Shown: positions 10,799 to 41,324, counted from the first letter of the stretch. The stretch is DNA of 64,000 bases from Alphaproteobacteria bacterium (GCA_050175015.1 JBFXJJ010000007.1:10513-74512), one strand, 5' to 3'. Numbers and translations: made by a program. The notes: generated by a model from the letters alone, not told the origin.

Positions 10799-10807
10799 TG
10801 AAAGCAA

Positions 10808-17288: not shown

Positions 17289-20200
17289 TTAAATCAAAGA
17301 AATAATTTTTTTCGCTAAATCGGTTGTATTGGGAGGCGAAAGCATACTTGAATGGTTTCCAGGAACATCAAAAACAGTTACGCCGTCATTAGTGTACTCA
17401 TTCCAAGCTTCACTTGGGCTTTGATCATTAAATTCATCTTTGATTGCAGCTTTCATAAAGTTAATTTTGAGATTGCTTTTTCTTGGAAAATAATTTTCCA
17501 TAGCGTTATGATTAGCAAGCAGAACCTTAATGCGTTTTTTTAATTCCTGCATAGTTATGTTCTTATATCCACTATGACTATTTTTTATTTCATTTAGGAC
17601 ATACTCAAAACAAGCATCTTCATCAAGATTTTCCATATTTTTTTGATGTTTTGCAAAATTTTTGCCAATATCATCAAGATCTAAAAGATAGGCAAACAAA
17701 TCTTTATTGCTTCTTATCTTATAGTGCTTATATTGAGGAGCTGGAGTATCGAGCATAATAACAGGATTAAAGCTAAGACCTTTTTCTTGCATTCTAAGAG
17801 CCATTTCATAGGCGACATAGCCCCCGAAAGAATAGCCAATCAGAGTTATAGGCTGCTCGTTTCTATATTGCTCTATAGCTTCAAGATAGTAATCAGCCAT
17901 TTTTTCGATACTGTCTAAAGCATCATCATCATTCCACAAACCTTTTGATGATATTCCATAAGACGGGTAGGTGCTTTCCATCGCATTAATTAAATCCCTA
18001 AAAACAAAAGCGCCGCCACCGATAGCGTGAACAAAGAAGAGTTTTGGTTCCGTTTTTTGTCCTTGGCAAAACTGAGTTACAATCGAGGTTTCTTTTTCGT
18101 CGTCATTATTATTATCTAATGCGGCATCTTTTTTATCATTCTTGAAAGCGGCGGCAATTTTATTAGGGGTTCCTTGAATATTGATATAACTAGTTGGAAT
18201 TTTTATGCCATAAGTTCTTTTTAAAAGATTATTTAATTGAACCGAAGATAAGGAATCTCCACCTATTTGGAAAAAATCATCATTTAAGCCAACATTGTTA
18301 ATACCCAAAACTTTAGCCATTGCCTCAGCAATAACGGTTGCTTCTTGCCCTATGGATATAGCTTTTTTGGCAGTTTTGTTTTCTTCAGTATTTTTTATTG
18401 GTGTCTCGGTTTTTTTATTATCAATAAAGAAGTATTTGCGATCGAATTGATAAGTTGGAAGAGATATTCTTCCTAAATTTCGCCCTTCATATAATTTTTC
18501 CCAGTTTAAGTTAAGCCCTTTTTCCCAGAGCTGTCCTAGAGCTTCTAGAAAATCATAATACTCGCCTTTGCCTTGTTTTTTTATAACTGGGACAGCATAA
18601 CAAGGATTTTTTAATTCATTTCTTAAAGCTAGCGAGCTTAAAACTCTAGCGGGACCAACTTCAATCAGTAGGCAGGCTTTTTCTGAAGCAAGGGTTTTAA
18701 TGCCTTCAGCAAAACGCACAGGGTTTCTAATTTGTGCCGCCCAGTATTCTGGAGAAGATGCTTCGCTATCAGTTAAAAATTTACCGTTTAGGTTAGAGAT
18801 AATAGGAATCTTTATGGAACCTGTTTGAACTTTGGCTAAAGCTTCGGTAAAAGGTTTTAACGCAGGATCCATTATAAAGGAGTGGAAAGCTTTAGAATTT
18901 GGTATTTCTGAACATCTTATTTCTTTAGAAACTAAAAGATTTTTTAAGGTATCAATCGCATCATCGGTTCCGGCAACAACACTCTGATTAGAAGCGTTGA
19001 TAGCAGCAAGATTAAGCTTAGAATTCAGATATGGCAGCACATCGTTCTCAGGAAGAGAGATGGCAAGCATTTTACCTTGAGCGCATTCATTCATTAACCT
19101 GCCACGAAGAATGACCATATTTAAAGCATCTTCCAAAGAAAAGACATCGGCTAAGCAGGCGGCTACCCATTGCCCAATGCTGTGTCCAATCATTGCTTGC
19201 GGGATAATTCCAAGCGACATCAGATATTTCGCTAGGGCATACTCTATCGCGAATAATGCGGGTTGAGCATATGATGTCGATGACAGATGTTCTTCTGAGC
19301 TTTCTTCAAAGATGACATCTTTAAGACTTACAGGCAATAACGGTTCAGCTATTTTAAAACATAAATCCAAAGTGTCTCTAAAGTATGGAACTTTATTATA
19401 AAGTTCTTTCATCATACCTTTATATTGGGCGCCTTGTCCTGTGAACATAAAGATAGGTTTAAGGTCTTCTGGCGTTTTTTCAGTATTAGGATTTATCTCA
19501 AAATAAGAGATAATATCTTCGGGGCTAACCCCTACCGCAGCTTTTCTGAAATCAAAGTGTTTTCTGCCTATCGCAGTGGTATAAGCGGCATTATCTAAAT
19601 TTAAACTAGGATTGGCTTTTAAAAATTTTATGAAACTATCGGTTTGTTTTAAAGCCGAAATTTCAGTCTTGCCACTTATAAGGAGCAGGTTTGGAGTGCC
19701 ATCTTGTTTGAGATCGTCGTTTTTAGGTTTGGGAGCTTCTTCTAAAATTATAAAAGCGTTGGTTCCTCCAATGCCGAAAGAACTTACGCAAGCTCGCTTA
19801 GAATGATTTGGGCTTTTTAACTCAATACACTCCTTCGGAAAAGCAAGATGAGTTTTTTCAACACCTAGGGAAGGAATAGGCTTTTCGAAACCATAGTTAG
19901 GAGGAATAAGGCTTTTTTCCATAACTTTGACGGCTTTTATAAATCCAGCTACCCCTGCGGCACTGTCTAAATGCCCTATACTGGTTTTTATGGTTCCTAA
20001 ATAGCATTGCTCCTTACGGTTTTTGCCATCTAAAGTTTCTTTTAATGCCGTAAATTCTATGGGGTCTCCTAGCGCTGTTCCTGTTCCATGGGTTTCCACA
20101 TAATTAATCGTTTCTGGTTCGTAGCCAGCTTTATTAAGAGCTAAGGAAATAACTTGCTTTTGTCCTTCAATAGACGGGGCAGAAAAACCTATTTTTTCAC

Positions 20201-23200
20201 AGCCGTCGTTATTAATGGCAGAACCTTTTACGACAGCATAAATATGGTCATTGTCACGAAGAGCGGCATCTAGTTTTTTTAGAACTACAATGCCTGAACC
20301 GTTGCCCACGACTGTTCCATCGGCCTTTTCATCAAAAGCTAGACATCTTCCTGTTTTTGATGAAATCGACCCTTCTTCATAAATGTAACCCTCAACTTGT
20401 CTGGCATTAACTCTAACACCACCAGCAAGAGCGATGTCGCACTCATTGTTGATTAAGGCAGAGACGGCGGAGTGAATTGTAACTAGTGAGGTTGAACAAC
20501 CTGTATTGATGTTAACGGCGGGACCTTTTAGATTTAACTTATAAGCAATTCTAGTTGTTAGAAAATCACCAGAAGAGTTAATCAATATCTGGAAATCATC
20601 AATGTTTTCTTTGAAATCTTCATTCCCATAGATATTTTTTAAAAAGTAGCTGTTAAATCCAGAACCCGCATAAATACCTATTAATCCTTGAAAAGTTTCA
20701 GGATTATATCCCGCATCTTCTAACGCCAGCCACGATGTTTCCATAAGAATACGGTGTTGAGGATCCAAGGTTAAAGCATCTTTGGGGCTAATATTAAAGA
20801 AATCCGCATCAAAAAATTCAAAGTCATCTAAAACACCGTTGGCAGGAACATAGTCTTCATCATTTATTAATTCGGGATCATTACCAGCTTGCAGCAACTC
20901 TTCTTTAGTAAAATGGGATATACAATTTTTCCCATCTAATAAATTCTGCCATAACTCATCGATATTTTTTGCTTTAGGAAATCTTCCAGCCATACCAATA
21001 ACCGCAATATCTGATGTGTTGCTGGCGCTGTGCCGATTAAAGTTAGCTGCTTTTTCTTCCCCGCCTAAGAATGAGGCAAGTTTGGCAATGGTTGGATAGC
21101 GGAATAAATCTAGTATCTCAACTTTTTTGCCTGTTTTTTCTAATATAAGATTGCTTATTTTCGCCATCATTAAAGAATGACCGCCTAAATCAAAGAAATT
21201 GTCATTTGATGAAAAGCTTTTGTTTCCTAAAAGGCTTTTCCAAATTTCAGCAATAATTTGTTCTAGTTGATTTAAAGGTTTGGTCTGATTTTGATTATAA
21301 TTATAATTAAGAGATAATTTAAGAGCTTTGTAGTCAATTTTATTATTTGAGGTCAAAGGAATTTTTTTAATAAGCTCTATTTGTGAAGGAATCATATAAC
21401 TTGGAAGTTTATCAGATAAAAAGTCTTTGAAATCTGCGGAATTAAGGTTTTGGTTTTGACATTCAACCCAAGCTGCTAAGAATTTATTATTGTTTTCATT
21501 AATGACTTTTACGGCAGCCGCAGAAACCTCTTTGTGTTGATTTAAAACCGCTTCAATTTCTCCGATTTCAATTCTAAAGCCTCTAATTTTTACTTGATTA
21601 TCTGTGCGGCCAACGAATTGAAGCTCGCCCTTATTATCATAGCGGACTAAGTCGCCTGTTTTATAAATTCTTATGGCATCAGTTTGTTTTGGGTCTTTGA
21701 GATAAGTTTGCGGCGACCAATAGCAAAAGCGTTCTTCATTAAGTTTTTCGTTTCCTAAATATTTAAGAGCCAGAGAATCTCCGCCAAGATAAAGTTCGCC
21801 GATACCTCCGATTGGAACAGGCTGTAAAAAATTGTTTAAGATATAACAGCTAACATTTGATATAGGTTTTCCTATACTCGGAATGCCATCTTTGCCTTTT
21901 TCTAGCTTTTTATAAGAACTAACAACGGTGTTTTCTGACGGACCATAAAGATTGTAGCATTCAAAAGGTGTCGTTTCTAAGGAAGAAGATGTTACGGCTT
22001 CACCACCAAAGAACAGGCACTTAAGGGGAGTATCTTTTTCCCACTCCATATTATAGAGTTGCTCTGCAATTACTGAAGTTGCGAGCATATAGTTTATTTG
22101 ATTGGTATTAATCCAGCTTTTAAGTTTTTCATAATCCAGAATAAGATTGTTGGGCAGAAAGGTTAAAAACAAGCCTTTGGAAAGATTGCCCCATATTTCT
22201 AAAATAGAGGCATCAAACATCAAATTAGAACATTGGGCGACGTTATTTTTGCCTTCGATGATGATGTTATCCAGCATAAGCTCTAATGCGGCAAAGCCTT
22301 TTGATGAAACTAAAACGCCTTTAGGTTTACCAGTGGAACCAGAGGTATATATAACATAAGCTGGGTCAATTTCTGATGGCAGATTATCTTGCCATAAGGA
22401 ATATTTTTCTAAATCTTCATTTTTTAAAACGATTTTGGTAATACTGCTTGAAATTAGTTCATCATATTCAGATGATATTTTGGTGCTGGAGATAATAAAT
22501 TTGGCATCGGAGTCATCAAGAATATATTTAAAGCGTTTAGTCGGTGTGCTTGGTACCGTTGGCACGTAGGCTCCACCAGCTATCATTGTTCCCAGCATAG
22601 CGATAATAGTATCAACCGATTTTTCCATAAAGATAATAACGTTATCGCCTTTATTCAGCCCCTTGGCTTTTAAAAGAGATGCTAGTTTTTGGGCGCTTTG
22701 AGAAAACTCTTCATAAGTTATGGTTTTTTCATCATCTCTTAGCGCCAGAGCTTTAGGGGTCTTGTTGGCAGCATCAAGAATATACTGAGCTATAGAACGT
22801 GGTTTTAAGTCTTCTTTTTTGCCTTGCCATTGATTAATAAGAATGTCGTGCATTCTAGGCGATATGCCGTTTAAATTGCTAATGGTAATATCAAAATTTT
22901 CAGCAACGGTTTTTAATATATGAGAGAAAGAATCAACTAAATTTTTTATTGTTTCTTCACTGTAGAGTTTAGAGACATATTCGACAAAGGCTACAATTTG
23001 GTTGTTGAACTCTTCAAAATAAAAAGTTAAGTCCTGTTTTGATACTTTAGAGTCATATTCAACAAAGCTGTAGTCATAGTTGCCAAATTTGCTACTGGTA
23101 ATTGGCGGCATAAAATTGATTGTATTTTGAAAAAGCGGCGAAAGGCTTAGATTTCTTTCAATATCAAGTTTGGATACCAGATATTCAAAAGGCATTTCGG

Positions 23201-24329
23201 CGTGGCTTAAAATTTCGCCCATTTGTTTTGAGACTAATGATACTAGTTCTTTAAAAGTAAAAGATGGCTCAAGCTTGATTCTAAAGGGGAGAACATTTAC
23301 AAACATACCAATTAAATTGTGTAATTCTGGCTTGTTTCTGCCTGCGATAGGAAGTCCTACAACAATATCATTTTGATTGGTATAATTATACATTAGCACA
23401 GAATAGATGCTGAAAAACAACGTGTTGAGGCTTATCTTCTGGGTTTTTACCAGTTGTTTTATTTTTGAAGAAAGTTCTTCATCAAAAGGAATTTTTAGGC
23501 TTTTGCCATCAAAAGATTGTTCTGATGGTCTTGTAAAATCTGAAGGAAACGTGCTTATTGGTGGAAAGTCTTTTAAATAGGTTTTCCAGAAAGAAAGTTC
23601 GTTTTCTATAGCATCGCCTGTTAAATATTTACGATTTGAAACGGCAAAATCTTCATATTGAATTGCGAGCGGTTCCAGTTCTTTATCATCATTTTTTAGA
23701 TAAAAGCCAATTTCATCAATTAAAACCCCAATAGACCAACCGTCAGCGATAATATGATGAATTAAAATTCCCAAAATGGTTTTTTCGGCACTTATGTGAC
23801 ATAGACAGCAGCGCATAAGAGGCGTTTTTGCTAAATCAAAATTATATTCCGACAATGAAGATAAAACTTTTTTTGCTTCTTCTAAGGGGTTCGAAGAGGC
23901 AGAAAAATCGTAGGTCTCAAAAGGTATTTCAACATTTTGTTCAATGTTTAGATAGGCGGTTCCATCATTTTCAACAAAAGATGTTCTAAGACTGTTATGG
24001 CGTTTTACAACTTTTGAAACCGCTTTCTTTAAGTCATCTTCTGCAACATAGCCTTTAATATCTAGGGCTTGAAAAACATTAAAAATATTTCCTGTAGGAA
24101 TCATTTTATCTAATAAAAACAAACGTTGCTGTGAGAAAGATAACGGCTTTTGGGCATTGGTACTATCTTCAGTTTTTAAATGCGCAATAAGTTCAGACTT
24201 ATATTTTTTTATCTCGGTTTTTAGGTCAGATGTCATAAGCCCTGTTGGCGCCCGATAATGAAGATTACTGCCATTTAAGGTAAGGGTAATATTGGAAGAT
24301 TTCAATTTGTTTAATAAAGACGCAATCAT
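17289..24329 (-). CDS. Hybrid NRPS-PKS (terminal): TubC_N-C-A-PCP-KS-AT-ACP-TE
   Basis: N-terminal docking LLNKLKSSNITLTLNGSNLHYRAP; C HHIIADGWS; A YTSGSTGKPKG/YGPSE/YKTGD; PCP LGGHSL; KS NTGCSTS, HGTGT, IGHL; AT GHSIG, KAFHS; ACP GGDSL; TE GYSFGG, GNH. The ATG 24329 overlaps the upstream TAA (TAATG). Confidence 0.95.
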   Translation of the reverse strand: MIASLLNKLKSSNITLTLNGSNLHYRAPTGLMTSDLKTEIKKYKSELIAHLKTEDSTNAQKPLSFSQQRLFLLDKMIPTGNIFNVFQALDIKGYVAEDDLKKAVSKVVKRHNSLRTSFVENDGTAYLNIEQNVEIPFETYDFSASSNPLEEAKKVLSSLSEYNFDLAKTPLMRCCLCHISAEKTILGILIHHIIADGWSIGVLIDEIGFYLKNDDKELEPLAIQYEDFAVSNRKYLTGDAIENELSFWKTYLKDFPPISTFPSDFTRPSEQSFDGKSLKIPFDEELSSKIKQLVKTQKISLNTLFFSIYSVLMYNYTNQNDIVVGLPIAGRNKPELHNLIGMFVNVLPFRIKLEPSFTFKELVSLVSKQMGEILSHAEMPFEYLVSKLDIERNLSLSPLFQNTINFMPPITSSKFGNYDYSFVEYDSKVSKQDLTFYFEEFNNQIVAFVEYVSKLYSEETIKNLVDSFSHILKTVAENFDITISNLNGISPRMHDILINQWQGKKEDLKPRSIAQYILDAANKTPKALALRDDEKTITYEEFSQSAQKLASLLKAKGLNKGDNVIIFMEKSVDTIIAMLGTMIAGGAYVPTVPSTPTKRFKYILDDSDAKFIISSTKISSEYDELISSSITKIVLKNEDLEKYSLWQDNLPSEIDPAYVIYTSGSTGKPKGVLVSSKGFAALELMLDNIIIEGKNNVAQCSNLMFDASILEIWGNLSKGLFLTFLPNNLILDYEKLKSWINTNQINYMLATSVIAEQLYNMEWEKDTPLKCLFFGGEAVTSSSLETTPFECYNLYGPSENTVVSSYKKLEKGKDGIPSIGKPISNVSCYILNNFLQPVPIGGIGELYLGGDSLALKYLGNEKLNEERFCYWSPQTYLKDPKQTDAIRIYKTGDLVRYDNKGELQFVGRTDNQVKIRGFRIEIGEIEAVLNQHKEVSAAAVKVINENNNKFLAAWVECQNQNLNSADFKDFLSDKLPSYMIPSQIELIKKIPLTSNNKIDYKALKLSLNYNYNQNQTKPLNQLEQIIAEIWKSLLGNKSFSSNDNFFDLGGHSLMMAKISNLILEKTGKKVEILDLFRYPTIAKLASFLGGEEKAANFNRHSASNTSDIAVIGMAGRFPKAKNIDELWQNLLDGKNCISHFTKEELLQAGNDPELINDEDYVPANGVLDDFEFFDADFFNISPKDALTLDPQHRILMETSWLALEDAGYNPETFQGLIGIYAGSGFNSYFLKNIYGNEDFKENIDDFQILINSSGDFLTTRIAYKLNLKGPAVNINTGCSTSLVTIHSAVSALINNECDIALAGGVRVNARQVEGYIYEEGSISSKTGRCLAFDEKADGTVVGNGSGIVVLKKLDAALRDNDHIYAVVKGSAINNDGCEKIGFSAPSIEGQKQVISLALNKAGYEPETINYVETHGTGTALGDPIEFTALKETLDGKNRKEQCYLGTIKTSIGHLDSAAGVAGFIKAVKVMEKSLIPPNYGFEKPIPSLGVEKTHLAFPKECIELKSPNHSKRACVSSFGIGGTNAFIILEEAPKPKNDDLKQDGTPNLLLISGKTEISALKQTDSFIKFLKANPSLNLDNAAYTTAIGRKHFDFRKAAVGVSPEDIISYFEINPNTEKTPEDLKPIFMFTGQGAQYKGMMKELYNKVPYFRDTLDLCFKIAEPLLPVSLKDVIFEESSEEHLSSTSYAQPALFAIEYALAKYLMSLGIIPQAMIGHSIGQWVAACLADVFSLEDALNMVILRGRLMNECAQGKMLAISLPENDVLPYLNSKLNLAAINASNQSVVAGTDDAIDTLKNLLVSKEIRCSEIPNSKAFHSFIMDPALKPFTEALAKVQTGSIKIPIISNLNGKFLTDSEASSPEYWAAQIRNPVRFAEGIKTLASEKACLLIEVGPARVLSSLALRNELKNPCYAVPVIKKQGKGEYYDFLEALGQLWEKGLNLNWEKLYEGRNLGRISLPTYQFDRKYFFIDNKKTETPIKNTEENKTAKKAISIGQEATVIAEAMAKVLGINNVGLNDDFFQIGGDSLSSVQLNNLLKRTYGIKIPTSYINIQGTPNKIAAAFKNDKKDAALDNNNDDEKETSIVTQFCQGQKTEPKLFFVHAIGGGAFVFRDLINAMESTYPSYGISSKGLWNDDDALDSIEKMADYYLEAIEQYRNEQPITLIGYSFGGYVAYEMALRMQEKGLSFNPVIMLDTPAPQYKHYKIRSNKDLFAYLLDLDDIGKNFAKHQKNMENLDEDACFEYVLNEIKNSHSGYKNITMQELKKRIKVLLANHNAMENYFPRKSNLKINFMKAAIKDEFNDQSPSEAWNEYTNDGVTVFDVPGNHSSMLSPPNTTDLAKKIISLI

Positions 24330-27300
24330 TATATTTCCCCTTCTTCCCATTCTGGTTCCGTTTTTTTCTGAGGTGTTTTCAAGGCTAGATATTTAGATAA
24401 TTCTTCAACCGTTGGCGAGGCAAAGAAACGGTCAAGTGAAATATCAACCCCTGTTTTATCTTTAACTTTAGATGCAATTTGAAGAGCAAGGAAGGAATCA
24501 ACTCCCAAATCAAAAATGTTTTTCTTAGGGTCAATATCAGTTATTTCCATAAGTTCACTAATAATATTAGTTAAAATTTCCTGCGGTGATAATGAAACAG
24601 GGGCATCATCTTTTGTTTTTTGTTCTTCAGTTTTTGGTTTTTCCAATGTTTCAATATCATTCGTCGATATAAAAACATAAGGTTTATCAAATGCAAGAGA
24701 GCGTTCTATAATCTCAGGTATTTCCGAAGGTTTAATGGCAGATTTTTTAAATTCCTCAATATCGATTATGGTTTTCTTCTTGCCAAAATATTTTTCCAGC
24801 TCTTTGTTGATTCCATTTTTGTTAAGCAGAACATAATTTTTAATATCTGCTATTTTCTCACCATTATTGGTCGTTATTATGATATCAAAAATAACTTTTT
24901 CTTCATCATCTTCAGAAGAAACTAATTTGCAGTAACTATAAATTTCATCTTTTATGTTTTGATAAATAGTAATTTCACCAAATTTGAAAGGAATAAAATC
25001 ACTGGTGTTACTCGTTTGCGACAAATAAAATGCCGTTGCAATGTCTGTCAGGCTTGGATAAAAAGAATGATCTTCAAAATCATTTTGCAAATTTTCACTA
25101 AGACTTAACTTTATTAACGCTTCGTTATCGCCGCACCACAATCTTTTATCAAACTGCCAGTGTTTACCAGCTTCTATTTTAAAATCGGCATTTCCATTAG
25201 TTTCAAAATCAGGTGAAGAATCAGAGATAGGTGTCTCTTTCATATTGGCTTGTAGCACAGAAATATCTAATGGTTCTGGCGCTTTTCCTTCGTTATTTTC
25301 AACAAATAGCCCCGATAAATGCTCGATTTCTTTATCTTTTTTATTACTGGTTATGGCAAATTCAAAAAAATCTTCTTTAGGGTTTGTATAAAGATTTACC
25401 TTTACTTTTTCGTGCGGTTTGGCGCTTAAACGGCGGGATAAAATTACATCTTTAAAAGTAATGATATGCTCTTTTTTCAATACATTGGCAGCAAAATCAA
25501 TATAACCTGTTGCGGGCATTGTGGGCTGGCCATTTAAAATATGCTCTCCTAAAACCCAGTTTTCTTCTGGAGATGTTTCAATACTAAATATTTTTCTAGC
25601 ATTTGGATTAAGTCCATTAACAGCTTTAGCAGCGATTCCGTTATTGGCAATAAAATCCCAAGCAATGCTAACTACAGGGAAGCCATCTTTGTTGTTGTAT
25701 TCAGTAGCAAAAGCATCAAGATAAGCATTGGCAGCAGAATATGAAGAATGACCTTTCTCGCCAAAGTTTCCAGAAGTAGAGGAGCATAAAAGTATAAATT
25801 TAGGATTGCAATTTTTGACTTTGTTATAAATTGTATTGGTCGCAGTTATTTTGGGCGACATAATTTTAAAAGCGTGTTCTTTGCTTAAAGATGCAATCAT
25901 TTCGTTATCAGCAGTTCCCACGCAATGGAAAATGCCATCGATTTTTCCTAAAAATGTGCTGGCTTCATTGATGCTGTTTTGCAAGACGGCATCATCATTT
26001 ATATCGCAGGCAAGACTCAACTTTTTGCCTGAATGTTTTACAAGATTTTTCATTCTTATATCATTATCTTGAAGCTTGCTGCGGGATATAAGGACAAGAT
26101 TAGCATTATAGTTTTGTGCAAGATACTCAGAAACCTTTGCTCCGATGCCACCAGAAGCGCCAAAAACAATATAGTTTCCTCCTTTGGTTAGAAGGTGCGT
26201 TCTGGTCAGTTTAGATTGGCTGGGATTTATTTCAGGAACAAGTTTGTATTTTCGCAATGCAATAATTTCATAAATTTTAGACGTTAAAGATAAGGTCAAA
26301 ATTTCAGGAGAAAGCTCTGAAATATCAAGGCAGCGGCATTTGATATTGGAATATTCTTTATTAATGGTTTTAACTACCCCAAGAATAATGCTTTTAAGGG
26401 GTGAGGTTACTTCATTTTCAGTTTTAAGCATATTTTTAGTTATGACACTAATAATTATGGGGGTATCGTTTAAAGCTGCAATTCTCGCAAGGGATATAAT
26501 GTTTCCAAAGTAACTTTCATAGCCTTCATTAAGAGTGTCAAAATCTTCTAAAGCATCTAGGTAAATTATGTTTTTGGTATTTTTGGTTTTCAAAATAGAT
26601 GCTAGTTCTTCTTTATTGAAATTGGAAATCTCATAACAATCTATATTCAACTTTTGCAATAAATTTAGGACATCATTTTGAATGCTTGTTTTGCGGTATA
26701 AAATTAAGCTTCCTGCAATGTCGGATTCACTATAGCTAAAATCATCTTCAAGTAGTTTCCAAGTTTTGGAATAGAACCAGTTTTCTAATGGTTTTCTAGT
26801 GTCATTGCTGGTTTTAGGAGCATCGATCCAGCATTTGGTCTTAACAAAAGCATAAGTTGGAAGCGATATGCGTTGGCATTTTTTGTTTTCAAACAGCTCG
26901 TTTCCAAAAGATGATTCGCCTTTTTGCCAGTTTAACAGCGTTGTTTTTAATTGGTCTTCAACAGCAGGGCAGACAATATCAATACTGCTTTTTTGCTTCA
27001 AGTTCTTGATAACTTCGTCACGTGAAGAACCTACAAAAACTTTTCTAAAACGGCATTCCTTGCGTCCCATAGCTAATGTGAAAAAAAGATCTGAGTTATT
27101 AAGACTGGTGTTCTGGCTTAAAAAATCGGCGAAGGTTTCAATCGAACTTTCTAAAGAATTTTGGGTTTCGGCAGAAAGAGGAACAACCCAGAAGTCATCA
27201 TTTTTCTCAGAAGTTTCTAACGAAACAAATTCTTCTAAAACGATATGAGCATTTGTTCCGCCCATACCAAAGGAACTTACTCCCGCATATCTCTTATCTT

Positions 27301-31660: not shown

Positions 31661-31842
31661 TGCACAAACACTCTAGAAATATTGTATGGTTCTTAAAAAA
31701 TATGGCTGTTAGGAATATAGCTAATAATACTTATTATAACAACTATAAAAAATAGAAAAAAAGCAACATTTTTTGCTTATAAATATAAGAAAAACATACA
31801 AAATTCTTGACGGTTGAGCTTTTTTTGTTTAAAGCCAAAGAG

Positions 31843-33403: not shown

Positions 33404-34442
33404 TTTAAAAGCTGTTTTAAATAGAATAAAATTTCCAATGATGCTTACAGGAATCATAGTGACAGTGTCATTTTTTGTGCTTTGGAGATTAGTTGTTGTT
33501 ACTATATTACCTGGTCAAAAGGCTGTGTTTTATTCCCGTATGTTTGGCGGAACGGATATGAATACCGTTTATGGTGAAGGAATTCACTTGAAAATGCCAT
33601 GGGATAAATTTTTTATTTATGATGCTAGAGTTCAAGAAGCAAAAGTTGATTTAGACGTTCTTTCCTCTGATGGTCTAACAATTAAGGTTACGATTTCTTG
33701 CCGCTATCAAATTATGAAAGATCTTCTGCCTCAGCTTCATACTGAAATTGGAATAGATTATTTTAACAAAATTATATATCCGTCATTAACTTCCGCTGTA
33801 AGGCAAGTGGTTGGCAAATATCGCCCGATAGAGCTTTATTCCAGTGCAAGACAGGAACTTCAAGATCAGATGCTGGTTACAGCAATCCAAGAAGTATCAA
33901 GGGTGCCGATTGTTATATATAATGTGATTGTGAAAAGCATAACTCTTCCAGAGATTATCAATAAAGCGATTGAGAAAAAACTTGAATCTGAGCAGGAATA
34001 TTTAAGATATCAATATATTCTGCAGACAACAGTGGAAGAAGCAAAAAGAAAAACGATAGAAGCTTATGGAATTAACCGTTATCAAGAATTAATAAATCAA
34101 AATATGACGAATGATTTTCTGCGTTTTGAAGGCATAAAAGCAACTAAAGAATTGGCAGCATCACCTAATTCTAAAATGGTTGTTATTGGCGGCGGAAAAG
34201 ATGGTCTTCCTGTTATTCTCAATACCGCAGATAGTGATGTTTCTGCAAAATCTCAAAATGCGCTAAAGCTTAATGATGCTCGAGAAAAAACAGCTAAAAT
34301 TGAGGAATCCGTTGTTAAAGAAACAGATCAAGCAATGATTAAAGCTGAAAACAGCATATTAAACCAAAACAAACTTATTGAAAAACTTAAGTATTTCGAT
34401 AAAATTCTTTTAAATCCATTGAAAGGTAGCTCAAATGAATGA
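33396..34442 (+). CDS. SPFH/prohibitin-family membrane protein
   Basis: N-terminal TM, GEGIHLKMPW, VLSSDGL, SAVRQVVGKY, AIEKKL, coiled-coil, LAASPNSKMVVIGGGKDGLPVIL. Confidence 0.88.
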   Translation: MNSLKAVLNRIKFPMMLTGIIVTVSFFVLWRLVVVTILPGQKAVFYSRMFGGTDMNTVYGEGIHLKMPWDKFFIYDARVQEAKVDLDVLSSDGLTIKVTISCRYQIMKDLLPQLHTEIGIDYFNKIIYPSLTSAVRQVVGKYRPIELYSSARQELQDQMLVTAIQEVSRVPIVIYNVIVKSITLPEIINKAIEKKLESEQEYLRYQYILQTTVEEAKRKTIEAYGINRYQELINQNMTNDFLRFEGIKATKELAASPNSKMVVIGGGKDGLPVILNTADSDVSAKSQNALKLNDAREKTAKIEESVVKETDQAMIKAENSILNQNKLIEKLKYFDKILLNPLKGSSNE

Positions 34443-34629
34443 AATTGTGATTATTTTTGTTAATGTCGTTTTGTCCGTTATCGTGGGAGCGATTGGTGAA
34501 AATCGTAAATTTGGTTTTTGGGGTTATTTTTTCGCTAGTGTTTTAATGACGCCAATTGTTGGTGCGATGTTGGTTTTGGCATCAGATGCTCCGCCAAAGA
34601 TAACTAAGGTTAAAATCGAAAACGAATAA
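34435..34629 (+). CDS. Small two-TM membrane protein
   Basis: 64 aa, RKFGFWGYFFASVLMTPIVG; overlaps the SPFH stop by 8 nt. Confidence 0.7.
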   Translation: MNEIVIIFVNVVLSVIVGAIGENRKFGFWGYFFASVLMTPIVGAMLVLASDAPPKITKVKIENE

Positions 34630-34652
34630 TAAATAAAATTGAATTTGTTTAG

Positions 34653-34691
34653 AATTAAAGGGGTTCTTTATAAAACCCCTTTAATTTTTTT
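34653..34691 (+). terminator. Intrinsic terminator of the SBP-SPFH operon
   Basis: 13-bp stem AATTAAAGGGGTT/AACCCCTTTAATT, 8-nt loop, then a T-run. Confidence 0.75.
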
Positions 34692-34907: not shown

Positions 34908-34939
34908 TAAAAAAGCCCATAAAAATATGGGCTTTTTAT
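34908..34939. terminator. Bidirectional-type intrinsic terminator downstream of DUF697
   Basis: AAAAAGCCCATA/TATGGGCTTTTT 12-bp stem with a 4-nt loop. Confidence 0.75.
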
Positions 34940-34963
34940 GAATATTAAGTTTTTAAACTTAAA

Positions 34964-35479
34964 TTATTTTGAAGTTTGTTTAGAAAGTTCTTTACCTTCT
35001 TCAAACATTTTTTTGAAGTGAGTTTTAACTTCTTCTGGTTTGAGGTCAAGTAAGTTGCCACCAGCTTCAAAGTGAGCGGCAAAGACTTTACCTGTGGCAT
35101 AAGTTAAAGCACCTGCAATAACAGGGAGACTTACAACTCCAACAAGCTGACCTACGATTGGAATAAATTTTAATACAGAAGCAAAAATTCCTGTAGCAGC
35201 AGGCATAATACCAACTGAAGCAAAAAGAGGAAGTAAAACGTTTTTAACTTTGTTTTCTGAGAAAGGAATATTATAGACCTTTGTCATTTTAGAAAGCATT
35301 GTTATTTGTGCAGCATAAATTGCAGCAATGTCCCAGCCTGGAAAAGGAATAAGACCACCACCAGCACTCCAAAGCATAAATGTTTTGGTAATTTTATTGG
35401 CTTGTTCAAGTTGAGAAAGCCCAGAAAGTTCTTCAGAACTAATCTTTGGACCAACGTCTTTTTTTACTTCAGCATTCAC
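34964..35479 (-). CDS. DUF697/YcjF-like protein
   Basis: GTG start after GGAGGA; GGGLIPFPGWDIAAIYAAQITML...VYNIPF, FIPIVGQLVG, ALTYATGKVF..HFEAGG. Confidence 0.8.
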   Translation of the reverse strand: MNAEVKKDVGPKISSEELSGLSQLEQANKITKTFMLWSAGGGLIPFPGWDIAAIYAAQITMLSKMTKVYNIPFSENKVKNVLLPLFASVGIMPAATGIFASVLKFIPIVGQLVGVVSLPVIAGALTYATGKVFAAHFEAGGNLLDLKPEEVKTHFKKMFEEGKELSKQTSK

Positions 35480-35542
35480 AGTTAATATCCTCCAAATATA
35501 TGTAAAAAGTAGAAATTAAAGTATCAATTTAAGGGTTATATG

Positions 35543-38500
35543 TCAATCTTTATAATCGCTTTTACTTGCTATTAATTCCTTAATTCCTAAAAGGTTTGAC
35601 TTGTCAAATAAGTCAATAATATTAATTTTGGTTTTAAATTCTTGGTTTATTTTTTCTAAGAGTATTCCAATAGTTAAGCTGTCGCCACCTAGTTCAAAGA
35701 ATGAAGTGCTATCTGTTATAATTGAGGGATTTATTTTTAAAATATCAGCAAAGATCGATTTGATAGTTTCATCGGTGTTATTTTCGCCTTTGATAAGGCT
35801 AACAAAAGCGCTAAAAACAGGAAAATCAAAAACAGTAGACAAAGAAATTTTAATATTAAACTGATCTTCCATTTTTTGAACAATAGTTGCAACTTGTAAG
35901 CTGTTGCCTCCAAGTTCAAAAAAGTTGCTGTCGGGAGAAATGTTTTTAACGCCTATAACTTCACACCAAATATCAGCTATTTGTTTTTCTAATTCAGTTT
36001 TAAAACTATAGGTGTTTTCTGCCGTTTCAGTGTAAGAGTTTACGGGCATACTGGTGAGTTTCTGTCTGTCAATCTTGCCTGTTGTTGAGATAGGAAACTC
36101 ATCAATAATATTGATATATTTAGGAAGCATTTGTAGCGGTAAAAAGGAACTTATCTTTGAGTTTATATCGGCTATATTTAATTTCTCATTAGTTTTTATC
36201 CAAGCGCAGAGTTCGTTTTCTCCCGCATCATTCCTGTGAACGGTAATTATCGCCTGTTCAATTTTGTCTCCGAGAGATTGTTTTATTTTTTGTTCAATTT
36301 CTTCAATTTCAATTCTTATGCTTCTAATTTTTACTTGAAAGTCATTTCTGCCGACAAACACTAAATGACCATTTTCATTCCAATAAACAAGATCGCCTGT
36401 TCTATAAAAGATGCCTTCACCATAAGGTGTTGTTATAAATCGTTTAGAAGTTAAATCTGGGCGGTTTAAATAGCCGTTTCCAACAGACCCCCCTCCGATT
36501 AAGAGTTCTCCTGTTTGTCCGTAAGGAACAAGTTCTAAGTTTTCATCAACCACTAGAAGAGCAGTATTGTTAATCGGGGCGCCAATAGGAACAGATTTCT
36601 GTTTAGCATCAAGCTCTGAAACTTTATGCATCGTTACCCCAATCGTAGTTTCTGTTGGACCATAGATATTAAAAACAGATTTTGTTAGAGGAAGAATGTT
36701 TTCAGCAATATCATTAGTTAAAACTTCTCCTCCGGTAACTAAGTTGAGATTTGGGGAACCCTTCCAGTTATGAGAAAGTAAAAGACGGCAGAGAACAGGA
36801 CCTGAAAAAACAATATCGGGTTTGTATTTATCAATATGATCGATAAGGCTTTGAGCGCTCATTGCAACAAAGTCAGGAGCAATCACTAACGAACCGTTAT
36901 TAAAGAATGTACCATAAAAATCGAGGCCAAAAGCGTCAAAGGCATAAGAGCCAACACTAAAACATTTATAATTTTTAGGAAAATCTACATTATTGAATAT
37001 AGCTTTAATTGTAGATAAGATATTTTTGTGGGATATTAATGCCCCTTTAGGTGTTCCCGTTGAGCCAGAGGTATATAAAAGATAGGCGTTATCTTCAAGT
37101 GACGCTTTACATAAAAAATGCGGGCTATCTTTTCCTAAATCTAAGTCTTGGATTAAGATGGCCGTTTCTTTAGGAATTTTTTTATCATTAAGAGTACTTT
37201 TATCTGTGAAACAAAATTTAGCATTAGCATCATTTAGCATAAAAAGAATGCGGTCAGATGGCGCTTTGTTATCAACTGCCATATAAACGCCGCCAGCTTT
37301 TAAGATAGCGAATAGTAAAATAGGAACAAATTCATCTTTTTCGAGGCAGACAGCAACGACGTCGCCCGTCTTTAAACCTTTATTTTTCAAATGATGCGCA
37401 ATGTTATCTGATATTTTGAATAAATCGCGATAGCTTGTTTCTTGGTCATTTTTATGAGAAGAAATAATTGCTGGAATATCTAAATTATCTCGGTTTACAA
37501 ATTCGATATAATCGACAATATTTTTGAAATTGGGGTTCTCAACTTTCTGCCCTTTGCCTTTCGCAATTAAATCAAGTTTTTCATCATCAGTCAGCTTTCT
37601 CTTGGCACATAAATTAAATTTGTGAGCTAATTTTATTTCTTCTTTATATTTTTCTGAAGCTTGTTTGATAAGAGAGTTAACAGAGATTTCACCTTCCAAA
37701 ATAAACGCGTTTAAAATACATAAGAAGGTTTTGAAAAAAGCATCAACTTCTTCTTTTGACAACATTTTAGGTAAATATTCAAGACGAATAAAAGCCCCAT
37801 CATGTCCAAAGGTATCAAAATAGGTAATTGTATAAGGGAAGAAAATCGCCCCGCTTGGGATATAATGGATAACAGCATCATAATCTTTGATAAGAGGAGT
37901 TGTGATATAATTGATTGAAAAATCAGGAGGACTAGGGACAGTATTTAATTTATCATAAATATATTGATAGGTTAACCTCGTTGGGCAGTTCAAATGTCGG
38001 CTGCAAGCAATAATATTTCTGCGAATTTCTTGTGCAATTTCAATTATATTAGTCTTATCTCCTAATTTGCTAACCAAAACACGGGACTCGGACATCGGTG
38101 CAACAATATCTTTATGTTCCTTTTTTCTTCGGTTTGAAGTTACATAAGAAAATCTAAAATTATCGTTGTTGTATAAAGTTTTAGAGGCTAGATAAGTTAC
38201 GGTTGTTAGAAGAGAATTTACCGTTATTTGGCAATCTTTACATTTTTGATTTAAGTCATTATAGAAATCTTTGCTAAGATAATGGTAGATGGTTTCTTGA
38301 GGACTTATATTTTGGATTGAGGGACTTTTGGTAAAAAGATATTCATTGTTTTTTTTATAATAATCTAAGAAGAAGTCTAAATCTTTTTGATAATTATCGC
38401 TGGCAAGATATTGTTTTTGATATTCTATAAAATTATCATATTGGATAACATCATCGGGGGCTTCTTGATTTTTAAGGCTTTTTAAGCATTTTAAGAAGCT

Positions 38501-38956
38501 GTTGCAGGCGTTAACAACACCTTGACCATCGGCTATTATTTGGTGCATTTTGTAAAAAATGCCAAAGTAGTTTTCCGCTAATTTTATGATATAGAAGAAA
38601 TAAAGCGGTTTATCATAAAAAGAGGCAAAAGGCTTGATAGATTCGATACGGCAAAAATCTAAAGCATAAGACAAAGGGTCTTTTTCTTTTGAAAAATCAA
38701 GATGACTAATTTCAAAATGATTACTATGACCATACTCAAATAAAACGCCGTTCTTTCCTTTTTTTAGAATAGCGGAAAAGACATCATGAAGCTTTAAAGA
38801 CATTAATAAAGTTTTTTCTACAATGGCAGCATCAAGATTTTCTCTTAATTCAAAAAAACAGGAATTGTTAAAAGGTGTTTTTTCTAAACCAATTTTTAAT
38901 TGCTCTGTCCAGATTTCGTTTTGGTTTAATGTAAGTTCTTTGATGTATTTATTCAT
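35543..38956 (-). CDS. Starter NRPS: C(HQxxxDG)-A-PCP-PCP
   Basis: Starter-type N-terminus LTLNQNEIW; MHQIIADG; A YTSGSTGTPKG, YGPTE, YRTGD, GKIDR; two PCPs (LGGNSL and LGGDSL). Confidence 0.92.
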   Translation of the reverse strand: MNKYIKELTLNQNEIWTEQLKIGLEKTPFNNSCFFELRENLDAAIVEKTLLMSLKLHDVFSAILKKGKNGVLFEYGHSNHFEISHLDFSKEKDPLSYALDFCRIESIKPFASFYDKPLYFFYIIKLAENYFGIFYKMHQIIADGQGVVNACNSFLKCLKSLKNQEAPDDVIQYDNFIEYQKQYLASDNYQKDLDFFLDYYKKNNEYLFTKSPSIQNISPQETIYHYLSKDFYNDLNQKCKDCQITVNSLLTTVTYLASKTLYNNDNFRFSYVTSNRRKKEHKDIVAPMSESRVLVSKLGDKTNIIEIAQEIRRNIIACSRHLNCPTRLTYQYIYDKLNTVPSPPDFSINYITTPLIKDYDAVIHYIPSGAIFFPYTITYFDTFGHDGAFIRLEYLPKMLSKEEVDAFFKTFLCILNAFILEGEISVNSLIKQASEKYKEEIKLAHKFNLCAKRKLTDDEKLDLIAKGKGQKVENPNFKNIVDYIEFVNRDNLDIPAIISSHKNDQETSYRDLFKISDNIAHHLKNKGLKTGDVVAVCLEKDEFVPILLFAILKAGGVYMAVDNKAPSDRILFMLNDANAKFCFTDKSTLNDKKIPKETAILIQDLDLGKDSPHFLCKASLEDNAYLLYTSGSTGTPKGALISHKNILSTIKAIFNNVDFPKNYKCFSVGSYAFDAFGLDFYGTFFNNGSLVIAPDFVAMSAQSLIDHIDKYKPDIVFSGPVLCRLLLSHNWKGSPNLNLVTGGEVLTNDIAENILPLTKSVFNIYGPTETTIGVTMHKVSELDAKQKSVPIGAPINNTALLVVDENLELVPYGQTGELLIGGGSVGNGYLNRPDLTSKRFITTPYGEGIFYRTGDLVYWNENGHLVFVGRNDFQVKIRSIRIEIEEIEQKIKQSLGDKIEQAIITVHRNDAGENELCAWIKTNEKLNIADINSKISSFLPLQMLPKYINIIDEFPISTTGKIDRQKLTSMPVNSYTETAENTYSFKTELEKQIADIWCEVIGVKNISPDSNFFELGGNSLQVATIVQKMEDQFNIKISLSTVFDFPVFSAFVSLIKGENNTDETIKSIFADILKINPSIITDSTSFFELGGDSLTIGILLEKINQEFKTKINIIDLFDKSNLLGIKELIASKSDYKD

Positions 38957-39026
38957 TTTAACTTTCCAAAAGTTATTTTTTAAATTACAAGCAACTTAGC
39001 ACCACAGTAGTGTAAAATCAAAAAAT

Positions 39027-39662
39027 ATGTTGAGTTTTTTTATGTCTTTAAGTGATGTTTTTGATAAAGATTTATTCGAGACCTTTTTTAGCAGAATAGA
39101 CAGTGTAGAGGGGAATGTTTTTTCTGAAGAAGAAACGTTGGTTGCTAAAGCTGTTGATAGCAGAAAAAAAGAATTTAGGTCAGGAAGAATTGCCTCCCGC
39201 AAAACATTGGAGCGTTGGGGATATGGCGACTCTAAAATTTTAGCAGTTAATCGTATGCCCGTTTTTCCTTTAGGAACGGTAGGCTCAATATCTCATACTA
39301 AAGAATATGTGATTGCTGTTTCAGCGCTTAGAGAAAACTGTCAGAGCATAGGGATTGATTTGGAAGAAATCTCAAGAGTATCGCAGGATTTGTGGCATTT
39401 AATTTTTACAATAAAAGAAACAGAAATCATAAAAAAAGCTGAAGAAGAATCTTTAGCGGCGCTTTTTTTTAGTGCTAAAGAATCCTTTTTTAAAATGCAG
39501 TATCCAATAACTCAAAAAATGCTCGATTTTAAAGAGGTAGAGATTAGTTTTGGCAAAGACAATTCGTGGCAGGTTAGATGTGAAAATTCTGAAATGGCAA
39601 AAGCTCTAGGGAAATATGCTGTAGAAGACGATATTGTATGTACTTTGTGTTATCTTTTATGA
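39027..39662 (+). CDS. 4'-phosphopantetheinyl transferase (EntD/Sfp type)
   Basis: RKKEFRSGR, GSISHT, IGIDLE, FSAKESFFK. Confidence 0.9.
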   Translation: MLSFFMSLSDVFDKDLFETFFSRIDSVEGNVFSEEETLVAKAVDSRKKEFRSGRIASRKTLERWGYGDSKILAVNRMPVFPLGTVGSISHTKEYVIAVSALRENCQSIGIDLEEISRVSQDLWHLIFTIKETEIIKKAEEESLAALFFSAKESFFKMQYPITQKMLDFKEVEISFGKDNSWQVRCENSEMAKALGKYAVEDDIVCTLCYLL

Positions 39663-41324
39663 TTTGTTTACAATTAAACCTTTATCCATTGTTATAACTC
39701 TATCGGCGACATCAAAGAAGCGGTCATCATGTGAAATGGCTAAAATGGTTGCACCTGTTGCCTTAAGCTCTTTTAGGAATGTGCGATAAAAATAGACCCT
39801 GAACTCAGGATCAAAATCGGCCGCAACTTCATCGAAAAGATAAATTTCTCTTCCTTCAAGCAGCGCGCAGGTAAGAGCTAAACGTTTTCTTTGTCCCGCA
39901 GATAAATCGGTGGTTGAAAATTTGCCGCTGTCAGTTAAATGGACTTTAGAGGCGAGTTCCATTTTCCCAAAAATATTATTAATTTTCTCAAGATTGTTTT
40001 GGGGAATACCAACAGGGCTTTCAAAAATATGAAAGTTGGTGAAGACAACAGCAAATAAATTGCGATAATTCTCAATATTTTTTTCATTTATAGGATTATC
40101 ATCGAGCATAATTCCGCCCTGATAGCTGGTATATAATCCTGAAATAATTCTCATAAGAGTGGTTTTGCCAGAACCATTGCCGCCTCTAATGAAGACCATT
40201 TCACCTTTATTAAGCTCAAAATCACTGATATTAATATGAAACTCGTCACTTTCATCGGCTTCATTGTATTTAAACTGCAAATTTTTAAGTTTAATTTTGC
40301 TAAAGGTTGGGACGGCAATTTCTTTATAATCCCATTTGTTAGCGATGCCGTCTTTAGCACAGCTTTCTGATGCATTGTCTAATTCATCTTCCAGCATTTG
40401 CATACCGTATAAACTAAACTCAGTTTTTGCCAGCAGAGGAATAAAGATAATTAGGCTGCTGATAGGGCTTAAGCAAAACATTCCAACAACCATTAGCTGC
40501 CCAATTACTTCAGCTTTTATGCCAAAAAAACCAGGAAGCAGAAATAAAGTTAAGCCTAAAACAAGGAAGTTCAGCATTTCAAAAAAAGTCATACCATAAG
40601 CATAACTTTTTTCAATTTTGCTGTTATAAAGCAAAGCATTATCAGCGTCAGGTATAATTTCTTTTGAAAACAAGTCAGATGTTTTGTTGCGGTTTAATTT
40701 TAACTCGGCAAAACCTTTGATTATTCCTTGCAGAGAATGAGCAAATTTTTGATTGTATTTCACTGCTTCAGCCTGAAATACGTTAAGCTGCTTGCTTGCC
40801 ATAATTAGCCGAACAACACCTAGAAGCATTAGAAAAAGCATAAAACCAGCTCCCCAGAAGGAGATGGTGAACATCTTAAACATTGCAACAATAACCATAA
40901 CAGAGCTTGAAGCCGCAATTATCATCATTCTAGCTGCTTCAATCGCAACGGCTTGATTATCTAAGAGCGTTGCTTGAATTTTAGAAATAGAAATATTTTC
41001 AAAAGAGCGCATATCTATAGCTCTGATTTTAACAGCTATGCGCATACGCCAGTCGGCAATAGCATTTAAAGCTACTAATGATACCGTTTTCATCAAATAA
41101 CGAAAACTAAAATAGAAAATAGAAATGCTAATGGCAAAAAATAAGAATTGATGAAACAAAAGATGTCCTTGTTTCATTAAAGACTGCAATCCATGTAAAA
41201 TGGCAAAAACAGTAAACCCTTGAGCGGTGCCTGCTACGATACAAAAAAACATGAGGCGAGAAAATTTTTCTCCAGCATTTTGTTTTATAAGTTGAAAAAA
41301 TAGTGTGTCTTGCAGTCTGAACAT
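39657..41324 (-). CDS. Cyclic-peptide export ABC transporter (SyrD/PvdE/YojI type, fused TMD-NBD)
   Basis: N-terminal TMD; Walker A GGNGSGKT, LSAGQRKRLAL, Walker B YLFDEVAADFDPEFR, ISHDDRFF. Confidence 0.9.
   Translation of the reverse strand: MFRLQDTLFFQLIKQNAGEKFSRLMFFCIVAGTAQGFTVFAILHGLQSLMKQGHLLFHQFLFFAISISIFYFSFRYLMKTVSLVALNAIADWRMRIAVKIRAIDMRSFENISISKIQATLLDNQAVAIEAARMMIIAASSSVMVIVAMFKMFTISFWGAGFMLFLMLLGVVRLIMASKQLNVFQAEAVKYNQKFAHSLQGIIKGFAELKLNRNKTSDLFSKEIIPDADNALLYNSKIEKSYAYGMTFFEMLNFLVLGLTLFLLPGFFGIKAEVIGQLMVVGMFCLSPISSLIIFIPLLAKTEFSLYGMQMLEDELDNASESCAKDGIANKWDYKEIAVPTFSKIKLKNLQFKYNEADESDEFHINISDFELNKGEMVFIRGGNGSGKTTLMRIISGLYTSYQGGIMLDDNPINEKNIENYRNLFAVVFTNFHIFESPVGIPQNNLEKINNIFGKMELASKVHLTDSGKFSTTDLSAGQRKRLALTCALLEGREIYLFDEVAADFDPEFRVYFYRTFLKELKATGATILAISHDDRFFDVADRVITMDKGLIVNKS

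Follow-up and report, generated by a model that had tools for sequence, protein, structure and literature searches.

A hybrid assembly line in an alphaproteobacterial genome

The stretch of DNA examined here, which we call the window, comprises 64,000 nucleotides (nt) from an Alphaproteobacteria bacterium (GCA_050175015.1, JBFXJJ010000007.1:10513-74512), and at positions 17289-41324, counted from its first letter, it carries a gene cluster for a hybrid non-ribosomal peptide synthetase (NRPS) and polyketide synthase (PKS). Calling of open reading frames (ORFs) gave three large co-directional genes on the minus strand, N1, N2 and N3, as the synthase genes, and Pfam matches together with motif reading resolved these into a five-module line: a condensation-like (C-like) domain, an adenylation (A) domain and two thiolation (T) domains in N1 (C-like-A-T-T); a C-A-T module followed by ketosynthase (KS), ketoreductase (KR), dehydratase (DH) and acyl carrier protein (ACP) in N2 (C-A-T-KS-KR-DH-ACP); and a docking domain, a second pair of modules with its own acyltransferase (AT) and a thioesterase (TE) in N3 (dock-C-A-T-KS-AT-ACP-TE). 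A preliminary description, made from the sequence alone, had proposed three megasynthases (1137, 2443 and ~2346 amino acids, aa) with five modules and a TE, and both the ORFs and the domains agree with it. Comparison with other genomes, described below, indicates that the cluster is a divergent alphaproteobacterial member of a conserved cross-phylum family, uncharacterised as far as our searches reach. The synthase genes and their domains are as follows.

35543-38956, minus strand: N1, initiation NRPS, 1137 aa (Pfam and motif reading)
37637-38935, minus strand: N1 C-like domain, MHQIIADG (Pfam and motif reading)
36062-37483, minus strand: N1 A1, code DALFVGIIGK (Pfam and alignment)
35795-35983, minus strand: N1 first T
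35567-35761, minus strand: N1 second T
24329-31660, minus strand: N2, modules 2 and 3, 2443 aa (Pfam and motif reading)
30317-31636, minus strand: N2 C
28841-30232, minus strand: N2 A2, code DAEDIGAITK
28562-28756, minus strand: N2 T
27377-28507, minus strand: N2 KS
26825-27370, minus strand: N2 KS-AT linker remnant, no AT
25646-26179, minus strand: N2 KR, GASGGIG...YSAAN
24830-25603, minus strand: N2 DH, HILNGQPTMP and conserved Asp
24386-24607, minus strand: N2 ACP
C-terminal end of N2: docking tail ...EPEWEEGEI
17289-24350, minus strand: N3, modules 4 and 5 and release, 2353 aa (Pfam and motif reading)
24174-24326, minus strand: N3 TubC_N docking domain
22854-24146, minus strand: N3 C
21339-22772, minus strand: N3 A3, code DALLFGLVVK
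21066-21257, minus strand: N3 T
19887-21014, minus strand: N3 KS
18531-19454, minus strand: N3 AT, GHSIG, KAFHS
18153-18353, minus strand: N3 ACP
17301-18044, minus strand: N3 TE, GYSFGG...GNH

The locus has the parts of a modular hybrid NRPS/type I PKS: its C, A, T, KS and ACP domains and its release domain stand in collinear order and keep their catalytic motifs. Motif reading found these motifs intact throughout N1-N3 with a single exception, the second His of the N1 C-like domain: the C domains of N2 and N3 carry HHIIGDG and HHIIADG, respectively, the core motifs A3, A4 and A10 of the A domains are present, the carrier serines lie in GGxS or GVDS, and the Cys-His-His triad of the KS domains is retained. 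Reading frames of ~18 kb run across the synthase genes without interruption, the cluster genes are translationally coupled, and N2 and N3 share a docking pair, formed by the WEEGEI tail of the former and the TubC_N domain of the latter. The database copy of N3 has 2346 aa and starts 7 codons later, at 24329, with a 1-nt overlap with the N2 stop, and this is a likelier start than 24350. There is no epimerization (E) domain, since the whole genome has only three Condensation-family matches; nor did we find an MbtH gene in the genome, or a methyltransferase (MT) or oxygenase domain within the synthases (Pfam), which is what the preliminary description had stated. The assembly line is intact and self-contained, with five modules and with docking, priming and export functions of its own.

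Two parts of this line depart from the usual layout. N1 ends in a tandem T-T, as read from motifs, and its C-like domain has Gln in place of the second His of HHxxxDG, scores 88 bits in Pfam against ~317 for the C domains of N2 and N3, and has VibH as its best match in the Protein Data Bank (PDB; E=6e-6) and its sole notable solved relative. In N2 there is no AT between KS and KR, with only ~120 residues from the end of KS to the LPTYAF post-AT motif; the module carries a RhiE-like, trans-AT-like linker (Pfam), and its KR precedes its DH (Pfam and motif reading). The earlier term "reducing PKS" therefore holds for the presence of KR and DH, and is to be qualified by the missing AT and by the order of the two domains. 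The genome contains two ATs only, one within N3 and one encoded by a FabD-like gene that neighbours fabF on contig 24, and neither is a free-standing gene dedicated to the cluster, as a trans-AT system would have. PDB searches with the N1 C-like domain, A2, KR-DH and TE gave confirmation at the level of fold only, the nearest solved structure to the N3 TE being an uncharacterised Acinetobacter NRPS (4zxh).

Substrate pockets of the adenylation domains

Stachelhaus codes were read by alignment to GrsA-PheA, and extraction of the code of this reference itself, DAWTIAAICK, served as a consistency check. All three codes proposed earlier, DALFVGIIGK for A1, DAEDIGAITK for A2 and DALLFGLVVK for A3, were reproduced in this way. 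Since the A2 pocket is acidic, a basic substrate is a reasonable assignment, and D-x-E-D-x-G codes resemble those for Lys and beta-Lys. The pockets of A1 and A3 point to hydrophobic substrates and support no finer call. The structure put forward before, X-[vinylogous Arg/Lys]-[Leu/Phe-derived beta-keto unit], is thus upheld in its module order and in its skeleton of a vinylogous basic residue followed by a hydrophobic-C2 unit, both of which match the confirmed domains, while its Leu/Phe identity is finer than the A3 pocket supports.

Priming, export and membrane genes of the cluster

The remaining genes of the cluster lie between N1 and N2 and upstream of N1.

39657-41324, minus strand: fused permease/ATPase ABC exporter, SyrD/cyclic-peptide type (NCBIfam, Pfam ABC_tran)
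39027-39662, plus strand: Sfp-type 4'-phosphopantetheinyl transferase (PPTase; Pfam 4PPT_N and ACPS, NCBIfam Npt/PptT/EntD-like)
34964-35479, minus strand: DUF697 membrane protein (Pfam PF05128)
34435-34629, plus strand: 64-aa membrane protein, 8-nt overlap with the end of the SPFH gene
33396-34442, plus strand: SPFH/Band-7 prohibitin-like membrane protein (Pfam PF01145)
32894-33403, plus strand: 169-aa protein, translationally coupled between the binding-protein and SPFH genes (position only)
31807-32907, plus strand: periplasmic substrate-binding protein, TrpX-like (PF04392)

Pfam and NCBIfam matches agree with the PPTase and SyrD-type exporter of the preliminary description. The top NCBIfam match of the exporter, TIGR01194 (cyc_pep_trnsptr), scores 271.7 bits, just short of the cut-off of 286.2. 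The five genes between N1 and N2, encoding the binding protein, the 169-aa protein, the SPFH protein, the 64-aa membrane protein and the DUF697 protein, are members of the cluster. For the 169-aa protein this membership is position-based only, because it has no Pfam or NCBIfam match and no counterpart was found among the other family members. A terminator-like hairpin lies at 34651-34688, near the gene for the 64-aa protein.

A cluster family shared across phyla

Homologues of N3 of equal length were found in metagenome contigs carrying the same gene set, and we identified five further collinear clusters (loci L035, L002, L036, G043 and L073), which together with the window form three sublineages. 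Four of them (L035, L002, L036 and G043) make up sublineage ii and are 53-80% identical to one another; the window is 33-35% identical to this sublineage and 37% to L073, in full-length, collinear alignments, and N2 is 33-37% identical to, and fully collinear with, the N2 of all five. In the relatives N1 has ~1070-1108 aa, N2 ~2520-2545 aa and N3 ~2351-2361 aa, and the accessory genes follow in the order Band_7/SPFH, binding protein, ABC exporter, DUF697 and a 66-71-aa membrane protein. G043, from an Opitutaceae metagenome-assembled genome (MAG), has the exact three-synthase architecture together with SPFH, binding-protein, ABC, PPTase and DUF697 genes, whereas L073, an ENA contig of 22 kb with 59% G+C, represents the third lineage; DUF697 and small-protein genes were not found on this 22-kb contig.

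The features that are unusual in the window recur in this family. The AT-less order KS-KR-DH-ACP could be read from motifs in the four clusters of sublineage ii; for the N2 of L073 the AT-less order follows from full-length collinearity and Pfam lists no AT, although the KR and DH motif patterns that we used did not match. The docking tail WEEGE(I/L) and the TE triad are kept across the family, and the A2 pocket, DAED(I/V)GA(I/V)TK, is near-invariant in all six clusters, whereas the A1 and A3 pockets vary. A cassette of SPFH protein, binding protein and ABC exporter is common to all six, and the DUF697 and 64-71-aa proteins to most. With three collinear synthases, the A2 pocket, the tail and the accessory genes the window has what marks a member, its binding protein being of another Pfam family and its gene order rearranged relative to sublineage ii and resembling that of L073. 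N1 is the outlier, only 23-24% identical to the N1 of other members while collinear over 97-99% of its length, and distinguished by its HQ motif and T-T tandem.

Conservation of the accessory proteins equals or exceeds that of the synthases. The DUF697 protein is 51-64% identical to cluster-linked DUF697 proteins of other phyla and is the best conserved protein at the locus, the SPFH protein is 38-43% identical to the Band_7 protein of every family member, and the exporter 31-35% identical to that of every member. The 64-aa protein aligns with the 66-71-aa proteins that close the L001, L002 and L036 clusters (...GRNGKFAFWGNF...), and a PPTase gene lies within the G043 and L073 clusters too. 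A binding protein is also part of the relatives' cassettes; theirs belongs to SBP_bac_1/8, and blastp detected no similarity between the two. Such conservation across collinear clusters implies selection. The label "unrecognised type" given to the cluster earlier is correct in that our searches found no characterised match (the best N3 homologues are at most 38% identical, the relatives of the same layout are all unnamed metagenome proteins, and no synthase has an NCBIfam equivalog match), and misleading in that the cluster is no one-off but part of a conserved family.

With the DUF697 protein as query, the cassette also turned up next to NRPS/PKS genes in records from Desulfobulbus rhabdoformis, Desulfosediminicola flagellatus, Electrothrix, Opitutales and Lewinellaceae. 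Much larger NRPS/PKS sets, extending over 50-100 kb and including C-A-T and KS matches by the dozen, adjoin or share a contig with the DUF697-SPFH-ABC cassette on the Desulfosediminicola flagellatus chromosome (L008/G042, ~3.41-3.51 Mb) and on contig C37 of an uncultured Opitutaceae MAG (G044), so the cassette is not tied to one type of assembly line. Two of its carriers, D. flagellatus and Desulfobulbus rhabdoformis DSM 8777, are strains in culture. DUF697 homologues that are 35-40% identical occur in Thiothrix spp. (L020-L023) and Thiomargarita (L026), some with an adjoining SPFH gene, and no NRPS/PKS similarity was found within their 10-kb flanks.

Genomic context

The contig that holds the window is 127 kb long and belongs to a genome of 2.53 Mb (49 contigs, 99.4% complete), in which the cluster is the only NRPS/PKS locus. 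The host had been described as a low-GC alphaproteobacterium, and this was borne out: the named TypA matches are "MAG: Alphaproteobacteria bacterium" at ~71%, GlnD scores above the PRK05092 cut-off, the compared relatives of the genome are of the same class only, and the G+C content is 0.349. A deep-branching, low-GC alphaproteobacterium is therefore supported. The G+C content of the cluster equals that of the rest of the window, with no anomaly that would point to recent transfer.

On both sides the cluster is bordered by single-copy housekeeping genes, with Rsm22, a DTW-domain protein and CorA on one flank, and IleRS, TypA, AmpG, PhoR, MutS and GlnD on the other.

16288-17274, minus strand: Rsm22-family S-adenosylmethionine-dependent methyltransferase, 14 nt past the N3 stop
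42743-45850, plus strand: isoleucyl-tRNA synthetase (IleRS), type-2 MupA/MupB-like (~722-724 bits to mupirocin-resistance models, far below cut-off)

Because it follows the N3 stop by 14 nt on the same strand, the Rsm22 gene is probably co-transcribed with N3. A role as O-methyltransferase for a methoxypyrrolinone was nevertheless judged unlikely: single-copy Rsm22 homologues occur in 5 of 30 relatives of the class, those searched lack the DUF697 gene of the cluster, and in none of the other family members does a methyltransferase gene follow N3. The gene is probably housekeeping. The IleRS gene, 1.4 kb beyond the exporter, was considered as a self-resistance copy and rejected, since it is the only IleRS of the genome.

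Several further genes were noted in the window. Between the exporter and IleRS lie two ORFs of 190 aa (41432-42004, minus strand) and 159 aa (42144-42623, plus strand), neither of which matches a family or recurs in the related clusters, and directly after IleRS comes a 1417-aa ORF (46027-50280, plus strand) with no Pfam or NCBIfam match, followed by two tandem 332-aa paralogues of PfkB-family sugar or nucleoside kinases (50415-52437, plus strand). At 9329-11935 (plus strand) a DltB-like MBOAT protein (489 aa) precedes a 375-aa protein without family match, and the two may act together in O-acylating a cell-envelope polymer of a Gram-negative lineage.

Proposed biosynthesis and release of the product

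By analogy with known pathways, the product is probably a small hybrid peptide-polyketide that is reactive and protease-inhibitor-like. A hydrophobic first amino acid would be loaded on N1, where the atypical C-like domain might N-acylate it. N2 would add a basic residue (Lys, Arg or Orn) and extend it with malonate, with either the N3 AT or FabD supplying malonyl in trans to the ACP of the AT-less module, after which KR and DH would convert the extended basic residue into a vinylogous (4-amino-2-enoyl) unit. N3 would then add a third, hydrophobic amino acid and a second malonate that stays unreduced. The TE would release the beta-keto thioester, most likely through attack by the adjacent amide nitrogen, so that an N-(enoyl) tetramic acid (pyrrolidine-2,4-dione) is formed. 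In the molecule, an alpha,beta-unsaturated imide, the electrophilic carbon would have a basic residue beside it, its predicted target class would be cysteine proteases, trypsin-like proteases or the proteasome, and it would be exported by the ABC transporter with the SPFH/DUF697/binding-protein membrane cassette.

To this structure as a whole, X followed by a vinylogous Lys/Arg and an N-acyl tetramate and acting as a Michael-acceptor inhibitor, we give about an even chance. We prefer tetramate release, since cyclisation has been proposed for althiomycin and related pyrrolinones, whose lines share the C-A-T-KS-AT-ACP-TE ending. Reutericyclin is an N-enoyl tetramic acid made by an NRPS plus KS-ACP-TE, and gallinamide A, a cathepsin L inhibitor, has a vinylogous Ala that acylates a pyrrolinone, so an end group of the proposed kind exists and is bioactive. 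Several observations weigh against the N-acyl tetramate inhibitor. N-acylation of the first residue appears doubtful in this member of the family, as its N1 C-like domain lacks the second His and scores weakly, although it is likely in relatives with a canonical HH. The A2 pocket indicates a class of substrate, its code being unable to distinguish Arg, Lys and Orn, and the searchable literature held nothing relevant for the codes DAEDIGAITK, DAEDIGAVTK and DAEDIG. The KR stereotype motifs of N2 are ambiguous, the release mode is not one that can be deduced from sequence, and the biological target and role are suggested by analogy only.

In an alternative that we consider unlikely, the same line would end with the TE closing a macrolactam through the side-chain amine of Lys or Orn; with Lys this would give a 14-membered enamide ring, that is, a ring-expanded syrbactin-like proteasome inhibitor. 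The near-invariance of the basic A2 pocket, the one specificity element so conserved over six clusters, is what a ring-closing residue would require, the exporter belongs to a cyclic-peptide family, the A2 code resembles those for Lys and beta-Lys, and syrbactin TEs macrolactamise with Lys. However, a conserved basic residue is equally explained as a P1 recognition residue, and Arg at A2, as in barnesin, would offer no side-chain amine; moreover, neither the cluster nor its neighbourhood encodes a lysine hydroxylase or a desaturase, and in syrbactins the vinylogous residue is C-terminal and made by a PKS module with its own AT, whereas here it is internal and the beta-keto unit terminal. Hydrolytic release, with the beta-keto acid decarboxylating to a peptidyl methyl ketone or staying as a linear acid, appears similarly unlikely. 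It would correspond to the opening half of an epoxyketone pathway that lacks its later steps. It would suit a terminal KS-AT-ACP-TE without reductive domain, and the PKS modules of epoxomicin and eponemycin do release a beta-keto acid, but an epoxyketone is excluded, as the cluster and its surroundings have neither a C-methyltransferase (cMT) domain nor an acyl-CoA dehydrogenase (ACAD)-like gene, a plain methyl ketone would add little to the enamide warhead, and the precedents with the same C-A-T-KS-AT-ACP-TE ending propose cyclisation (PMC3445576). All three routes, tetramate formation included, would leave an enamide beside the basic side chain, a putative Michael acceptor as in barnesin.

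That the cluster belongs to a family already characterised, of the brn/gvb type or another MIBiG entry, and that its product is known, seems very unlikely to us. Modules 1-3, the PPTase and the cyclic-peptide transporter do fit the published description of brn, but there the TE directly follows the reducing module with no second NRPS-PKS pair, and its authors report no further homologous clusters by BLAST (PMC13096860). The low identity to unnamed N3 homologues and the lack of an NCBIfam equivalog also speak against it, as do the different architecture of the kasumigamide clusters and the searched literature, in which vinylogous arginine appears only in barnesin and miraziridine and vinylogous lysine or ornithine nowhere. 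Least probable of all, and in our view extremely so, is that the cluster was acquired horizontally and survives as a silent or decaying remnant that makes no product. The small genome (2.5 Mb), the loss of a catalytic His from the N1 C-like domain and the far greater divergence of N1 than of N2 and N3 would be compatible with decay, but the ~18 kb of uninterrupted frames keep every other catalytic motif, the genes are translationally coupled with all accessory genes retained, and the G+C content is fully ameliorated.

We also put forward, as a speculation that is more probably wrong than right, that the family as a whole represents an undescribed class of covalent inhibitors, in which a vinylogous Lys/Arg sits on the nitrogen of a tetramic acid as an activated unsaturated imide with a basic P1 residue, the cassette serves export or self-protection, and the reduced genome keeps this as its sole secondary-metabolite pathway to disarm the digestive proteases or the proteasome of a host or predator. 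A vinylogous basic amino acid is very rare in natural products, the searchable literature offering barnesin and miraziridine only, and the known products of this type are potent cysteine-protease inhibitors. Where the barnesin authors stated that they could find no further homologous clusters (PMC13096860), we describe a conserved family, with six or more clusters known from Alphaproteobacteria, Verrucomicrobiota and metagenome lineages that are unassigned, which applies the AT-less KS-KR-DH logic to a basic residue before a further bimodule builds a second electrophile. The A2 pocket code and the docking tail provide search handles for genome mining of a possibly new warhead, and the SPFH/DUF697/ABC accessory cassette gains six cases through these clusters. 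Because orphan clusters of the NRPS-PKS kind are common and no rule of known enzymology is broken, the find is useful rather than surprising.

Comparison with known pathways

Two known pathways could be set aside on architecture. Epoxyketone biosynthesis (epoxomicin/eponemycin) was rejected because N3 has no cMT domain and no ACAD is found among the neighbouring genes. The kasumigamide clusters (kas/makas/dakas/hkas) resemble the present family in being cross-phylum hybrid NRPS-PKS clusters with a cyclic-peptide transporter, and their line is A-KR-T / C-A-T-C-A-T-KS-AT-KR-ACP / C-A-T-E-C-A-T-E-C, with no TE and no DH (PMC5061366); membership was rejected, since the published A-KR-T loading module, five NRPS modules, E domains and terminal C differ from the domains of the window and the product is of another class.

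The syrbactin pathways (syl for syringolin, glb for glidobactin) share with the window a small NRPS-PKS line, a basic residue (Lys), a vinylogous residue and a TE, and their products are covalent proteasome inhibitors (PMC13096860). In them Val or Ala gives rise to the vinylogous residue, which is C-terminal and made by a KS-AT-DH-KR module, with an AT of its own, that a macrolactamising TE directly follows, whereas that of the window would be internal, basic and formed by an AT-less module; they have a desaturase and a lysine hydroxylase that are absent from the window cluster and its immediate neighbours, and they lack the second, non-reducing PKS module that the window has.

The closest likeness of the first three modules is to barnesin, which is made by the barnesin A cluster brnE/brnF/brnI/brnBCD of Sulfurospirillum barnesii SES-3, with gvb of Geovibrio as a second cluster, and which contains a vinylogous arginine formed by an AT-less PKS that is served by FabD and requires a dedicated PPTase; it inhibits cysteine proteases, with Ki values of 81 nM for rhodesain and 1.5 uM for cathepsin L (PMC13096860). 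Set against the published description of brn, the window has the same succession of a starter C-A-T, a C-A-T with an Arg/Lys pocket and an AT-less KS/KR/DH PKS, which would likewise lead to a vinylogous basic residue, with malonyl supplied in trans (by FabD in barnesin), a cluster-encoded PPTase and a cyclic-peptide-type transporter. The supplements of the barnesin and kasumigamide papers give no A-domain codes. In brn, however, the TE comes right after the reducing module and yields a lipodipeptide, whereas N2 of the window ends in an ACP and a docking tail and a second C-A-T-KS-AT-ACP pair precedes the TE. The modules are also split otherwise over the proteins, the first C domain of the window has HQ and is followed by a T-T tandem, and the window has the SPFH/DUF697/binding-protein cassette. 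When the KR-DH-ACP part of N2 was searched with, both by word index and exhaustively, all matches were to unnamed metagenome proteins or to giant multi-KR PKSs, with neither BrnF nor any named relative among them, and protein searches with this part and with N3 gave no match in Sulfurospirillum.

For the last two modules the nearest parallel is althiomycin, in which the terminal modules (Alb5/AlmB) join an amino acid and a malonyl unit and a TE releases them as a pyrrolinone, a logic also proposed for dolastatin 15 and malyngamide (PMC3445576). In pathways of this type the aminoacyl unit and malonate cyclise on release to a 5-membered lactam, either a pyrrolinone or a tetramic acid (PMC3445576), and the window likewise ends in C-A-T followed by KS-AT-ACP-TE without reduction. 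The chains upstream are unrelated, and an O-methyltransferase gives a 4-methoxy-pyrrolinone there, whereas none belongs to the cluster family of the window, so a free tetramic acid would be expected here. Gallinamide and reutericyclin are further analogues of the terminal modules carried by N3.

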